Positions 40,788 to 60,342 of a stretch of DNA of 64,000 nucleotides are shown here, piece by piece. Origin of the DNA: an uncultured Gemmatimonadales bacterium (lineage in GTDB: Bacteria > Gemmatimonadota > Gemmatimonadetes > Longimicrobiales > RSA9). Positions within the stretch are counted from its first letter, which is position 1; every line of letters begins with the position of its first letter. The position numbers and the translations under genes are program-made. Where the stretch lies: the NCBI GenBank assembly GCA_963783305.1, contig CAWAMW010000015.1, forward strand, positions 1-64,000. Direction: 5' to 3'. Under the pieces are notes generated by a model. The model was not told the DNA's origin. It was given only the letters and a program-made list of their open reading frames with translations, and ran no database searches.

Positions 40788-41531
40788 TCATGGGTTCGGA
40801 GGCACCAGCGCGTCGTCCACGACGCGGCGAGTCTCCACACCCGTCAACCACGAAAGGAGCGGGAGGAAGACCGCGTAGCTGACGCCCTCCACGAGGGCAG
40901 GAAACGCGTTTTCGCCCCGGTAGAGGTCGGCGGCCAGAAGGAGCATTAGCCACAGGTATGACATGCCGACGATCGCCGTCGTCCCTCCAACGGATCCGAA
41001 GTCCCTCGAGAGCCGTCGTGCCGAAGTGTAACCTGGGCCTCGCCAGATCCACGGGAAGGTCGTACTCGACTGGCCCAGCTCGTCGGGCACGACCACCCCC
41101 AGGGCGGCCAAAGGCCAGAGTCGCGCCAGAACCGGCAGAAGAGCCACGGCGGCACCCGCCACCTCCGCAGCCGTCCCGGGCAGCCCCAGGAAGTCGCCCA
41201 GCATCCCGCCGAGGGTTCCGCCCACCGCGCCCGCCAGTGCCAGGAGCAGAAGAAGTACGAGCAGGTTCATCGCATGACTCGGCAGCCTCCGAAACGCGAG
41301 CTGGGCCACGTTGCGACCAGCGTGAAGGCCTTCGGAACGGGCGGCGGCGGCGACCACCAGAACGCTGCCCAGCACGGCCAGCGCAACCTCCTGAACAGCC
41401 GGCGCCGAGGGCGCACCAGCAAGCAACCAGACCAGCGCCGCCGCGGGCGCCATTCGCAAGTACGCCACGACGAACCGGCCGAGGCTCAGGTCGGGTGCCG
41501 AACCAGTCCGGGCGCTGGGCACCGTAGGCAC
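40788..41531 (-). CDS. Multi-pass membrane protein
   Basis: About six hydrophobic segments; start uncertain. Confidence 0.7.
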   Translation of the reverse strand: MPTVPSARTGSAPDLSLGRFVVAYLRMAPAAALVWLLAGAPSAPAVQEVALAVLGSVLVVAAAARSEGLHAGRNVAQLAFRRLPSHAMNLLVLLLLLALAGAVGGTLGGMLGDFLGLPGTAAEVAGAAVALLPVLARLWPLAALGVVVPDELGQSSTTFPWIWRGPGYTSARRLSRDFGSVGGTTAIVGMSYLWLMLLLAADLYRGENAFPALVEGVSYAVFLPLLSWLTGVETRRVVDDALVPPNP

Positions 41532-41539
41532 TCTCGGGA

Positions 41540-41815
41540 TCAGGTCCGGGGAACCATCCCCCGCCGCTCACGCAGCATCTCGAGCGTGGCCTGGACCTTC
41601 TCCTCCAGCGCCGTAGAAACGTCGTCGAGCGAAACTTCGCTCCCTTCGATCTCGACCACGAGAGGGTCCGGCTCGGTCTCATTCAGGTCCGCGATCTTCT
41701 CCCGCAGGTCCTCCACCTTGCCGAAGGCGAACACAGCCTTCTGCAGCCATGTGGCCTCCTGCTGGATCAGACGCATCTCTCGTCGTTGTTTCCGCTTTTC
41801 CTTGCTCTGGTTCAC
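41540..41815 (-). CDS. Hypothetical protein
   Basis: GGAGG RBS before GTG; helical, charged sequence. Confidence 0.8.
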   Translation of the reverse strand: MNQSKEKRKQRREMRLIQQEATWLQKAVFAFGKVEDLREKIADLNETEPDPLVVEIEGSEVSLDDVSTALEEKVQATLEMLRERRGMVPRT

Positions 41816-42011
41816 TCCGCCTCCATTGAGTTGATCCGATGGGTCGACTCTGCTCCTACCAACGAGAGCCCCTGAAGGTCCGAGCGCCGATCCACTCGAC
41901 CCGGGGTTCGGGCGAGACGCCCGGTCGCCATGCCTTCACTAACGGCAATCCTGATGCCGCCCATGCCCTTTCAGCCATTCCCGTGCCCCGCCGGGGAGCA
42001 CACACTCGCGC

Positions 42012-42857
42012 ATGGCCAACGACCTCCTTTCCACAGCAGCCGCGATTTCGTCGCGGAGCTGCCCACGATGCGCCTGTCCGCGCAGCCACCGCTGGGGACG
42101 ATTCTCGAACCGGCAGCGGTATCGGTGCCTCGGCTGCCAACGGACGTTCAGCACGTTTACCGGCACGGCGCTCCATTATCTGAAGAGGATCGATCGGTGG
42201 CCAGAGTTCTGCCTCGCGATGCAGGGAACGGAGACCATCCGAAGGACCGCGGTCCGGCTGGATATCCATCGTGACACCGCCTTCCGCTGGCGGCACCGAT
42301 TTCTCGCGACTCTGGGTCGCGGCGAGTCGGTGCTTTTGTCGGGAAACGTCGCGGCAGGAATGATCCGGTTCAGGTACACCCGAAAGGGCGCCAGAGAGCC
42401 CGGCCCCGAAGCCATGGGTGGAGTGACCCGAGGAGATGTCCAGGCATGGGTCGCACTGGCACGGGACCACCGGGGTGCCGCCATCAGCGCAGTCACGATC
42501 GCCCCCGGCATCGGCGTGACCCACCTCGTCGAGGCGCTCACGGACCGTGTAGCGCCGGGTGCCGTGCTCCGAAGCCGCGAGGGACCCTACTCCTGGACGG
42601 CCATCTGCGCTCGGCGCATGCGGCTGCGGTTCGAGTCTTTGCCGCGTCACAGACAGTCGCCGCACGACCCGGAGCAGATCGCTCTCTATGCGCTCCGAAT
42701 CCGAAAATGGATGGTCCGGTTCCGGGGCGTCGCGACCCGGTACCTGGCGCACTACCTCGTCTGGTTCCGCGCAGCCGATGCCGGTTGGCGGACGGATCGC
42801 TGGGACTGGTCGGCCGTCGCTCCCGGCGTCGGTGGGGGAATCGAACGGGGAGAGTAG
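42012..42857 (+). CDS. IS1595-family transposase-like protein lacking catalytic residues
   Basis: Zn ribbon CPRC...RYRCLGC, HTH TAFRWRHRFL, LARD and RFRGVATRYL..YL.WF; catalytic motifs substituted. Confidence 0.8.
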   Translation: MANDLLSTAAAISSRSCPRCACPRSHRWGRFSNRQRYRCLGCQRTFSTFTGTALHYLKRIDRWPEFCLAMQGTETIRRTAVRLDIHRDTAFRWRHRFLATLGRGESVLLSGNVAAGMIRFRYTRKGAREPGPEAMGGVTRGDVQAWVALARDHRGAAISAVTIAPGIGVTHLVEALTDRVAPGAVLRSREGPYSWTAICARRMRLRFESLPRHRQSPHDPEQIALYALRIRKWMVRFRGVATRYLAHYLVWFRAADAGWRTDRWDWSAVAPGVGGGIERGE

Positions 42858-43025
42858 AAGCGTCGAGCCGGCCATCGTGGCTTCCGCTCCGCGCGCCCCC
42901 CCGGGTGCGCAGGGTGTCCGTCCACAGGTTCTGCCGGACGGTAGATCCAGGGGGTGGATCGCCACCCTCGTTCGTGCCCGCTATTGTTCGGACCGCGGAC
43001 GGCGTCTTTCGCTGCTAATATCGCT

Positions 43026-43170
43026 GTTTGTCAGCGGGAATTGTGGGCCGGCAGCAATATCGGGGGAGCGGTCGGGACGAAGGCAGAGTTCAGGGGGGCG
43101 GCCCCGGATTCTCAGCGCCTGCCGCACATTCCTCTACGCGCCAACAGTTCCTGCCGACAATCTCAGAGGG
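43026..43170. repeat. Inverted-repeat element, copy 1
   Basis: gtttgtcagcgggaattgtggg (43026-43047) and ccaacagttcctgccgacaatc (43141-43162) match 17/22 as inverted arms. Confidence 0.75.
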
Positions 43171-43222
43171 TCGGGGCCCGAGGACCCGGCTGTAGCATTT
43201 CCCATCGTCTGGGGCGGCGCCC

Positions 43223-43555
43223 TCACCGACCCGCGGGGTCTTCTTCCCTTATCATCACGAGCATCATCTTGAACTCCACCCGCGCCTCCAAGCCGTGAGG
43301 CACACTGGCGGGCAGCGTCATCGTCTCGCCCTTCCGGACGGTGTGCGGAGTCCCTCCCACCCTTATCTCCGCCTCCCCGTCGAGGATCACGACCAGGGCC
43401 TCATACGGAGAAGTATGCTCCGTCAGCCCCTCGCCTTCCCCGAACGCGAAGAGCGTAACGTTGCCACCGCGCCGACCTAGAATCTTACGACTCACCACCG
43501 ACCCGGGCTGATACGATACCAGCTCCTCCAGCACGTTCACATCGATATCACTCAT
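43223..43555 (-). CDS. Cupin domain protein
   Basis: VTLFAFGEGEGLTEHTSP and PASVPHGL motifs. Confidence 0.9.
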   Translation of the reverse strand: MSDIDVNVLEELVSYQPGSVVSRKILGRRGGNVTLFAFGEGEGLTEHTSPYEALVVILDGEAEIRVGGTPHTVRKGETMTLPASVPHGLEARVEFKMMLVMIREEDPAGR

Positions 43556-43770
43556 GACCCACCTTCTGCCCTTTCCGCGCCGGCTGGCGCCATCAAGCGA
43601 AGCCGCTTCAGTCCGCTAATTCTGAGCCGTGGCTCCCGGGAAGGCCAGCGTCGTCCGGGTATATTCCACGGGGCGTGAGGTCGAGCGCTCGACCTCACGT
43701 CTGGGATTGCCGGAGCCCCGCCCTGACTCCATGTTCTCGGCAGGTAACCTCCCGAAAGGAAAATCTCGCC

Positions 43771-46005
43771 ATGCGATCAGCTCTCCGCGGGCTCCCCTTC
43801 CTGATCCTTATCACAGCCTGTGCCGGGAGTCGCGTCGGCTCCGGTGCTGGCGTTCCGATCTCCTCCCGAATCGTGGACCAGTCGGTCGACCGCGTCACTG
43901 CGGCCGACTACTCGCGCGCAGAACGCTTCCTGCCTGCCAACGTCTCGGGTCTGGTCCTGCACGAACCGAGGGAGATCTCCTGGGTCGGCGGTGGGGATCT
44001 CCAGTACCTGACCTTCAGCGAGGCGGGCATCGAGCGAGTCCTGGTCGATCCGGCGACGGGGACAGTGGAGCGAACCCTCGTCGGATCGCCCGCGGACACG
44101 GCGGCCGGAGGGAGTGCGCCGGGGATCCCGGCCCCTGACGGCGATGTGGACCGATCCATGGTGGTCTCCCCTGATGGATCGTTCGGGGCCTTCCGTCGCG
44201 AGCACGACCTCTGGATACGAGAACTGCAGACGGGGGCCGAGCATCGTCTGACCGAGGGGGGAACGGCGGAATTCGGATACGCCACGAACAACGCGGGCTG
44301 GGTGCGAAGCGACCGCCCCGTTCTGCGCTGGTCCCCCGACTCACGCCGGATCGCGACGTTCCGCCACGACGCCCGTGGTGTCGGCGAGATGTACCGCGTG
44401 TCCACGAACGTGGGACACCCCACGCTGGATGCGTGGGCGTACCCGCTCCCGGAGGACACGGTGATTTTCCGGATCGAGCGGCTCGTCATTGACGTGTCCG
44501 ACCCGTCCGCACCGCGGGTGGTGGAGTTCAACATGCCGGCGGATCCGCACCGCTCGTCCGTATGCGATCACGTGTACTGCGACGGAACGTTCACCGACGT
44601 GGAGTGGTGGCAGGACGGATCGCACCTGGCGTTCGTATCCTCCTCTCGCGACCACAAGCGCGCGACACTGCGTGTCGCGGATGCGGAAACGGGAGCGGTG
44701 CGGACGGTGCTTGAAGAGCGGGTCCCGACCTTTTACGAATCCGGTCACAACGCCTACAACTGGCGCGTGCTGCCGGAGAGCGACGACGTGATCTGGTATT
44801 CACGCGAGAGCAACTGGGGGCATCTCTACCTGCACGACCTGCGTACGGGTGATCGCAAGCACGCGGTCACGGCGGGCGATTGGAACGTCCTCGAGGTGGT
44901 CCGGCTGGACTCCCTCTCCCGCACCGCGTGGTTCATCGGCAACGCGCGGGAGCCGGGCGATCCCTATTTCGAGTACCTGTACCGCGTCGGGCTCGATGAC
45001 GGAGAGGTGATGCTCCTGACGCCGGACAGCGCTATGCATGAGGTCTCCCTTTCCCCGGATGGCCGGTATTTCGTGGACACGTACTCCACGCCCGTGAGCC
45101 CTCGGGTCACGGTTCTGCGGGACGCGTGGACAGGGGAGGTCGTGCAGCCGCTCGAGCGCGCCGACGCATCCCGCCTCTACGCAACCGGTTGGCGGCCGCC
45201 GGTCCCATTCTCCGTCACTGCCCGCGACGGCGTCACACCGCTCCACGGGCTCCTCTACCGTCCGACCTCCTTCGATTCGTCCAGGACATACCCGGTGATC
45301 AACTATATCTACCCGGGACCGCAGTCTGGAAGCGTGGGGACCCGGGGCTTCAGCCCTTCACGGCGAGATCACCAGGCGGTAGCGGAGCTCGGGTTCGTCG
45401 TCGTCACATTGGACGCCATGGGTACGCCAATGCGGTCCCGCAGCTTCCACGAAGCGTACTACGGCGACCTCGGTGACAACGGGCTGCCCGACCAGGTGTC
45501 CGCGATACGGCAGCTGGCATCACGGCACGCCTGGCTGGACCTGGACCGGGTGGGGGTTTGGGGCCACAGCGGGGGCGGATTCGCCGCCGCCGGGGCGATC
45601 TTCCGGTATCCTGACTTCTACAAGGTGGCGGTGAGCGAGGCCGGCAACCACGACAACCGCAACTACGAGGACGACTGGGGCGAGAAGTGGCACGGCCTCC
45701 TGCAGGCGCGACACGACGGCGGCACGAGCTATGACACCCAGGCGAATCAGCTCCTGGCCGCCAATCTCAGAGGGAAGTTGCTGCTGGCGCACGGCCTGAT
45801 GGACGACAACGTGCCGGCCTCCAACACGCTCCTCGTGGTACAGGCGCTGATCGAGGCAGACAAGGATTTCGACCTGATCGTATTCCCCGAAGCCCGGCAC
45901 GGCTTCGCCATGCACCCGTACATGATCCGGCGTCGCTGGGACTACTTCGTGGAGCACCTGCTAGGCGCAGAGCCCCCTACGGACTACGCGATCGGCGAGT
46001 ACTAG
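43771..46005 (+). CDS. S9B dipeptidyl-peptidase IV family lipoprotein
   Basis: Lipobox ITAC; IYPGP, GHSGGG, DDNV and RHGF motifs. Confidence 0.93.
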   Translation: MRSALRGLPFLILITACAGSRVGSGAGVPISSRIVDQSVDRVTAADYSRAERFLPANVSGLVLHEPREISWVGGGDLQYLTFSEAGIERVLVDPATGTVERTLVGSPADTAAGGSAPGIPAPDGDVDRSMVVSPDGSFGAFRREHDLWIRELQTGAEHRLTEGGTAEFGYATNNAGWVRSDRPVLRWSPDSRRIATFRHDARGVGEMYRVSTNVGHPTLDAWAYPLPEDTVIFRIERLVIDVSDPSAPRVVEFNMPADPHRSSVCDHVYCDGTFTDVEWWQDGSHLAFVSSSRDHKRATLRVADAETGAVRTVLEERVPTFYESGHNAYNWRVLPESDDVIWYSRESNWGHLYLHDLRTGDRKHAVTAGDWNVLEVVRLDSLSRTAWFIGNAREPGDPYFEYLYRVGLDDGEVMLLTPDSAMHEVSLSPDGRYFVDTYSTPVSPRVTVLRDAWTGEVVQPLERADASRLYATGWRPPVPFSVTARDGVTPLHGLLYRPTSFDSSRTYPVINYIYPGPQSGSVGTRGFSPSRRDHQAVAELGFVVVTLDAMGTPMRSRSFHEAYYGDLGDNGLPDQVSAIRQLASRHAWLDLDRVGVWGHSGGGFAAAGAIFRYPDFYKVAVSEAGNHDNRNYEDDWGEKWHGLLQARHDGGTSYDTQANQLLAANLRGKLLLAHGLMDDNVPASNTLLVVQALIEADKDFDLIVFPEARHGFAMHPYMIRRRWDYFVEHLLGAEPPTDYAIGEY

Positions 46006-60200: not shown

Positions 60201-60287
60201 CCCTCTGGGATTGTCAGCAGGAACTGTGGGCAGGGTGAACGGGCCCCCCGCATGTCCGCATGGGTCCAACATTTCCTGCTGACAATC
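60201..60287. repeat. Inverted-repeat element, copy 2
   Basis: gattgtcagcaggaactgtggg (60209-60230) and ccaacatttcctgctgacaatc (60266-60287) match 20/22 as inverted arms. Confidence 0.85.
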
Positions 60288-60342
60288 TACGAGGATTCGG
60301 TGGGCCGACCGGGGCTGGCTTCTGCCCTCCCCTCTCCACCGA

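Follow-up and report, generated by a model that had tools for sequence, protein, structure and literature searches.

The locus considered here raises the question of what is encoded by a transposase gene that has lost its catalytic residues and kept its reading frame. The window, by which we refer to the whole stretch of 64,000 nucleotides that was analyzed, contains at 42012-42857 (+) an uninterrupted ORF of 281 amino acids with the motifs CPRC...CLGC, TAFRWRHRFL and RFRGVATRYL, just as the original prediction, made from the sequence alone, had described it. The gene is intact, has lost its catalytic triad and is under purifying selection, and we consider it probable that its product (P0001) is a non-cutting binder of sites that derive from the old ends of the element.

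Domain architecture and predicted fold

The features of the gene, as assigned by alignment, profiles and an AlphaFold2 model, are the following:
42012-42857 (+), dead ISPna2-type IS1595 transposase derivative, P0001, 281 aa
42060-42137 (+), Zn ribbon, C17-C20/C39-C42
42216-42308 (+), HTH with TAFRWRHRFL (HTH_23, E 4e-4, below the gathering score)
42333-42764 (+), predicted RNase H-like core without the triad, ending in a W-x3-FRGVATRYL-x2-YL-x-W helix

The Zn ribbon and the IS1595 kinship, which had been recognized from the letters, were compared with profiles. P0001 passes the cut-off of the IS1/IS1595 Zn domain model NF050000 (29.4 bits, cut-off 28) and falls short of that of the IS1595 transposase model (56.4 bits, cut-off 75). 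As the latter is exceeded in 19 of the 73 genomes of the window's family, mostly by members of the dead clade described below, the low score of P0001 proves little alone, and P0001 was therefore aligned to intact transposases. In structure prediction (pLDDT 88.9), the best fold matches of the model are DDE transposases and integrases, with the ISCth4 transposase as the best (Z 9.2, rmsd 4.0, 182 aligned) and Hermes matching at Z 8.9 (rmsd 3.7, 152 aligned), so that an RNase H-type fold is predicted to be kept. A domain profile search of P0001 gave no match to Y1_Tnp, the HUH/Y1 tyrosine transposase.

In the clade alignment, the Zn ribbon, the HTH, an SxKG loop and the C-terminal helix are near-invariant and the catalytic motifs are scrambled. 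The four Zn-ribbon cysteines are kept in 97-100% of the 154 members compared, as are, in the same range, the HTH residues T89, F91, R92, W93, R94 and H95. Divergent from the dead transposase gene lies a gene of 91 aa of no known family (window 41540-41815, minus strand), which is 71-81% identical in four of six genus members.

Loss of the catalytic triad

The references for the triad alignment were intact transposases from plasmid records, four of which are named (ISOar1, ISAma5, ISClsp5 and ISAchd1) and belong to what we take to be the 'ISPna2-like' group. The first Asp of the triad (GIVEADE) aligns with GNVAAGM and is replaced by G116 (42357-42359), the second, of (C/S/V)(S/T)D, aligns with RSREG and is replaced by R189 (42576-42578), and the third residue, the N of HIQxVN, aligns with DPEQIA and is replaced by A224 (42681-42683). 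All three replaced positions had been named correctly in the original prediction; the alignment refines it in that the third residue is Asn in the subgroup of P0001. Acidic residues do occur close to the lost positions, namely E190 at a distance of one residue and E221 at three, and these are acidic in 23 and 49 of 152 relatives, respectively. Among the same relatives, no acidic substitute for the first Asp was seen, and only three have an acidic residue at or next to each of the three triad sites. An alternative acidic active site, which would have spoken against catalytic loss, was thus not found.

The clade set was assembled from the best 120 of 415 matches in a protein search, the named ones being from Gemmatimonadota or Longimicrobiales, together with genome-derived copies; rows more than 95% identical were left out, as were seven loci that are partial, frameshifted or duplicate, resulting in 154 sequences, to be compared with 65 outside references. 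The full D/D/N is found in none of these 154 non-redundant members (best 120 of 415 matches plus genome copies), with 134 keeping no triad residue, 19 keeping one and a single sequence keeping two, and it is complete in 63 of the 65 references. As 29 further clade sequences likewise lack the triad, the collection bears out the idea that catalytic loss is conserved among homologs. In a FastTree phylogeny, the dead proteins are placed on one side of a branch with an SH support of 100, for which compositional bias was flagged, and of 98 when two intact transposases from other families of the phylum, which keep the triad and group with the references, were added. In a sample of 301 genomes of the phylum, the clade is found in the window's family and in two genomes outside it; a metagenome scan with P0001 alone as query gave no match. 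Two Bacteroidales contigs (L068 and L090) encode ISPna2-type proteins without the triad that group with the active references, apparently a separate, independent loss.

Selection, synteny and inheritance

Selection was estimated by the Nei-Gojobori method in 31 pairs that are more than 58% identical to each other, or more than 45% to the P0001 gene. The dN/dS is 0.12-0.49 in all 31 pairs, below 1 as had been expected for a gene with a role, with every bootstrap upper bound at 0.67 or less. The closest orthologs present values of 0.12-0.21, and the ortholog in the sister species (G005) gives 0.31 at a dS of about 1.7, near saturation. The core evolves faster than the protein ends, being relaxed yet constrained. 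It should be considered that active transposases likewise evolve at a dN/dS below 1. A six-frame search of the 73 family genomes yielded 63 near-full-length matches with open frames of at least 267 aa; eight of these list one stop, at a place where the profile overruns the gene end. Neutral evolution with frequent stops, which was named at the outset as an outcome that would count against a role, is therefore not what is seen, as the full-length copies that were read have no internal stops. A weak fragment with a stop in the window's genome (G000), on contig C6, was dropped.

These data bear on the reading of the gene as a decaying pseudogene, whose frame would stay open because GC-rich DNA has few stops. 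The GC content at codon position 2 is 0.57 in this gene, compared with 0.35-0.49 in four neighbors, and a faster core is also what decay would produce. Nonetheless, with dN/dS below 1 throughout, 15 invariant columns among 121 proteins and the 63 open frames, the selection and conservation data already refute a pseudogene, and we give it next to no probability.

Inheritance was followed through the neighboring genes, two of which are listed for context:
43223-43555 (-), cupin gene, syntenic neighbor
43675-46005 (+), S9/DPP-IV peptidase gene, syntenic neighbor

In G005, the gene, its site pair, the cupin gene and the S9 peptidase gene stand in an order identical to that in G000. The locus of G032, from another genus, has prfC, a TonB-C gene and the S9 peptidase gene in common with G000, so that these three neighbors are shared by G000, G005 and G032, that is, by two genera. 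Synteny, one of the checks proposed for the locus, is thus kept across species. It is kept at the level of lineages only: across 100 loci, no partner or neighbor gene is conserved clade-wide. Since 32 of the 73 family genomes are without the gene, it is dispensable. G000 has one further copy, a dead paralog that is 40-43% identical to P0001 and lies inside its own site pair (C16:184638-185839); the site variant of this paralog differs from that of the window and is common to a pair at C16:326745-326819.

Sites derived from the terminal repeats

The old terminal repeats persist as 28-bp sites in inverted pairs, which are either around genes or gene-free. Their conserved core, CTGTTCGCGGGAANTGTTGG, brackets most clade genes and aligns with the ends of active elements. 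The window contains two pairs of TIR-derived sites:
43020-43047 (+), left arm of the pair just 3' of the gene, 23.6 bits
43141-43168 (-), right arm of the gene-adjacent pair, 25.2 bits
60203-60230 (+), left arm of a gene-free pair, 22.9 bits
60266-60293 (-), right arm of the gene-free pair, 25.0 bits

A 22-bp motif mentioned in the original prediction is probably the site at 43028-43047, 43141-43160, 60211-60230 and 60266-60285; the pattern for the site of the 43028-43047 type has three matches in the window, against 0.08 expected. G000 as a whole has nine sites of at least 18 bits (controls, 0), comprising the pairs 43028/43160 and 60211/60285, one pair on C16, one around the paralog and one lone site. 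The lone match at C16:172033 of G000 lies inside a coding gene and was set aside.

The P0001 gene adjoins its pair and is not enclosed by it, as is the case for the copies in G005, G032, G067 and L220, while most other clade members and the C16 paralog are enclosed by a site pair. Upstream of the P0001 gene, no site of 8 bits or more, and hence no left end, was found. A degenerate-looking reverse site near 42918-42940, picked out by eye, scores below 8 bits and was rejected, and general repeat finding in 41000-44000 gave chance-level pairs only. The gene-free pair 60203-60293 folds as a DNA hairpin (z -4.7), and folding of 43018-43167 is no better than in shuffles (z -0.1). Structured RNA at 41500-43800 was discarded as a candidate, with no Rfam match.

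Compared with active ends, the terminal GG is relaxed, just 23 of 88 pairs having kept it in both arms, and three bases beyond the former end lies a T that is 93% conserved. The left and right arms of pairs co-vary. Between gene-free pairs, most spacers show no relation to one another. In L297, L298, L299, L301 and L371, three to five sites follow one another in tandem at a spacing of 28-63 bp; as the spacers of these arrays are related, they look like local duplications, and a CRISPR-like nature was ruled out.

Sites and protein were counted in the 73 family genomes, where the exact motif occurs in 35 (reversed control, 0) and the protein in 41: 34 genomes have both, 31 neither, seven the protein only and one the motif only, and it should be noted that these genomes are kin and not independent. 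Of the seven protein-bearing genomes without the exact motif, five were re-searched or read and four of these have variant sites; G089 bears the protein and has no site near its gene. The number of sites per genome is 1-58, varying with the genome and the mismatch setting. One unpublished genome (G021) supplied two of the 154 clade sequences and two of the 90 pairs considered below, and another (G085) is the sole motif-only genome; when both are left out, the counts become 0 of 152 for the triad, 0 of 88 for duplications and 33 both, 31 neither, seven protein only and none motif only in 71 genomes. Nothing claimed here draws on a third such genome, G038. In all 16 genomes compared, gene-free sites are closer to the gene-linked sites of their own genome than to those of others, and 64 of 96 sites have their best or tied-best match at home (one G005 site being counted in both sets).

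The pair 60203/60293 is placed between an unknown membrane gene and an HlyIII-family gene and has an orthologous pair in G005 with an unrelated spacer. Each of the three G000 pairs without a gene inside is matched by a site at the orthologous position of G005, where the spacers are unrelated and the variants are of the G005 type. Beyond G005, no carB-side or HlyIII-side sites were seen in the corresponding stretches of other members of the genus, and the places occupied by pairs vary from genus to genus and also among members of this genus. P0001 might be read as an ordinary transcription factor, which represses or insulates neighboring host genes by means of intergenic operator pairs. We hold this to be quite unlikely: the DNA-binding domains are intact and the strong pairs of G000 lie in intergenic DNA and are kept in G005, but synteny is lineage-level with no clade-wide neighbor gene, the positions of pairs vary as just described, and the genes that pairs follow or separate are unrelated.

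Taken with the clade-wide loss of the triad, the dN/dS values and the synteny, the conserved end-like sites support the suggestion of the original prediction that the protein is under selection for a role other than transposition, such as the binding of end-like repeats.

Copying after the catalytic loss

Of 38 active elements used as controls, 27 carry an 8-bp target duplication. Not one of the 90 dead pairs has such a duplication where the ancestral end lay, and no offset yields more than two cases. One should take into account that old insertions lose their target duplications by decay. Near-identical multi-copy elements with target-site duplications had been named as a finding that would contradict domestication. 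The duplications are absent; near identity is present in part, as in G080 and G095 the 3' ends of paralogs are 97-100% identical over 121-148 bp at contig breaks and continue in unrelated tails, so that the family is not frozen (the G080 assembly is 6% contaminated). These identical ends fit gene conversion better than jumps of whole elements. G034 has seven paralogs, each in its own pair, of which the four compared are 51-61% identical, and in G063 sites lie within repeats of about 600 bp that are 68-95% alike. Some of the paralog copying came after the catalytic loss. The repeat family of about 600 bp, with a GTCCC...GGGAC hairpin upstream of the site and often at contig ends, was seen at L257-L274, L280 and L287 (G062, G063 and G065).

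MITEs and passenger-carrying IS derivatives (tIS/MIC) have short paired ends without an active transposase, and the same layout is present here. The pairs could be non-autonomous elements of the MITE or tIS kind, which an intact IS1595 in passing still moves occasionally or which host recombination copies; the dead protein would then selfishly assist or repress its own ends and have no role in competence. Such elements would account for the lineage-specific paralogs, each with a repeat pair of its own, for the near identity of paralog ends where contigs break off, for the site-bearing repeats in G063 that are up to 95% alike and for the co-variation of left with right arms. However, the full-length matches that were read from the 73 family genomes include no intact ISPna2-type partner, and the family's two full-scoring IS1595 belong to another group, without these ends. 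Moreover, and different from MITEs and tIS/MIC, interiors are mostly unconserved between copies and duplications are absent, and orthologous site placement is kept across saturated dS. We thus regard this account as unlikely. In three DNA sequencing runs of one study, no joints were seen.

A promoter-like motif upstream of the gene

We return to the reading of P0001 as a non-cutting binder of its former ends, for which the region upstream of the gene may indicate when the protein is made:
41974-42011 (+), leaderless promoter-like motif, GC(C/T)AT(T/G)-N4/5-(T/C)GCCCC(G/A)-N10/12-AnnnT-N5-ATG

The motif precedes 36 of 46 clade loci, the ATG following 21-23 bases past GCCCCG, and reads as a putative leaderless promoter. 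In G000, the strict pattern has nine matches and the loose pattern 34, against none and four, respectively, when reversed. The genes behind it in G000 include comM/YifB, YraN, ComF, a PilB/GspE ATPase, RecQ and RecN (the last presumably so, as its name rests on recall from its sequence), as well as an integron-type integrase, two RAYT-like genes and three AbiEi/DUF559 genes. In G079, which is without the dead gene, 22 of 26 motif matches were read and include comM, comF, recQ and pilB, and in G032, 17 of 18 were read and include comM, recQ, pilB, ssb, a GspH/FimT-type pilin and an integrase. G037, from a sister family, has no match. The motif is also absent from 75 of 75 active elements, which says little as those elements come from other phyla. 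As the motif is also present where a genome lacks the gene, and keeps a fixed distance to the ATG, a host promoter is preferred, and an autoregulatory operator or a reverse sigma-54 reading was rejected. Family-wide, loci of the motif are window 41974-42011, G000 C16:644113, C16:~607571, C6:~170334, C6:125932, C2:738914 and C7:199498, and L383-L421; the many mobile or nuclease-like genes behind it include RAYT-like, IS91-like, integron-type integrase, AbiEi/DUF559, Uma2, GxxExxY and IVP genes.

In the available text of two papers, ComM, YraN, ComFC, pili and SSB are transformation genes (PMC13663708, PMC1635313). The gene set behind the motif therefore probably outlines a competence regulon in Gemmatimonadota, and the protein of the dead transposase gene is likely made together with the products of host genes for DNA uptake and recombination. 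The motif is not found directly upstream of dprA, comEC, radC, recA or either lexA, for which reason 'competence' is likely and not certain, and the regulon may be a broader DNA-repair one. A LexA link was discarded, the motif being absent upstream of recA and of both lexA-family genes over cut-off in G000 (C12:78761-79363 and C7:127358-127954).

The regulon also bears on whether the protein still mobilizes the pairs, either with an active site that has been rewired or with the help of a recruited nuclease of the same regulon (RAYT-like, IS91-like, integrase or YraN). Two RAYT-like genes and an integron-type integrase are behind the same motif and sites were copied or homogenized after the catalytic loss, but no partner gene is linked to the locus and the two RAYT-like genes of G000 have no site nearby. 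As for a rewired site, Y244 and Y248 are invariant in the clade; both tyrosines are, however, also conserved in active relatives, and the triad has no conserved acidic replacements. Continued mobilization is, in our view, very improbable.

Relation to known systems

P0001 shares with the ISPna2-like group of IS1595 the Zn ribbon, the HTH, the SxKG loop, the FxGVATxYL helix and the predicted RNase H fold, and the site core aligns with the GGCT(C/A)TGT...TGTTG ends of that group. It differs in having no triad and missing about 45 N-terminal residues; its sites differ in the relaxed terminal GG and the new conserved T, and the system as a whole in the lack of an 8-bp duplication, in its syntenic inheritance and in the host promoter-like motif. 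Of what defines an active IS1595, P0001 thus lacks the triad, enclosing TIRs, the 8-bp duplication and near-identical copies.

Domesticated transposases are common in eukaryotes. In a search of the openly accessible literature, the publications listed for inactive domesticated bacterial transposases were unrelated, and none on IS1595 in Gemmatimonad was found. As far as the available part of the source describes them, RAYT/REPIN systems, the main bacterial case, have no known benefit and likewise combine a low-copy, vertically kept, transposase-derived gene with dispersed intergenic inverted doublets, whose genome-specific variants match the flanks of the gene and co-occur with it (PMC5581495). 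RAYT is, according to the same text, an HUH/Y1 enzyme thought to move REPINs (PMC5581495), whereas P0001 is DDE-derived without catalytic residues and its sites are former terminal repeats. By membership, the system is outside both active IS1595 and RAYT/REPIN, and its layout resembles RAYT/REPIN. It looks like an independent, DDE-derived counterpart of RAYT/REPIN whose enzyme cannot cut. The Merlin-like domesticated proteins of Stentor, in the portion of the report available, are also encoded by intact IS1595/Merlin-domain ORFs without a conserved DDE motif, but are eukaryotic and reported without TIRs, while here the repeats persist genome-wide (PMC8101967).

Possible mode of action

DDE transposases bind their ends and bridge the inverted pair, which is the general basis for the bridging considered here. 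The Zn ribbon and HTH of P0001 would read the site core, and two bound sites would be bridged in a transpososome-like manner, without cutting, so that the intervening 10-500 bp or gene would form a loop. Most speculatively, the bound pair might act during competence as a clamp or roadblock, for example against D-loop extension by ComM/YraN, and would then shield the gene and the gene-free pairs from purging by transformation, with gene conversion keeping the sites of one genome alike. This full proposal, of a dead DDE transposase that is induced in competence, staples its own former ends, blocks or steers ComM/YraN recombination and so resists curing, is put forward tentatively and is, taken as a whole, doubtful. 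In modeling work, as far as its available text states, transformation removes inserted DNA and mobile elements resist the removal (PMC4774983). On that view, the persistence of the gene and the gene-free pairs could be explained even if the host gained nothing from them; it is the promoter-like motif that links this element to the notion of mobile DNA being purged by transformation. If true, a REPIN-like system would persist without any cutting enzyme.

As a non-cutting enzyme separates the binding of repeats from their movement, the binding role can be tested directly. Since protein and site variants differ by genome, they form a putative natural library of matched pairs of binders and 28-bp sites. 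G000 also contains an abundant 16-mer, CTCGCAGGGTGGCTCG, in 78 copies and a TCCTACTCCTGCCTCC repeat in 32 copies, which are candidate REP families for its two RAYT-like genes.
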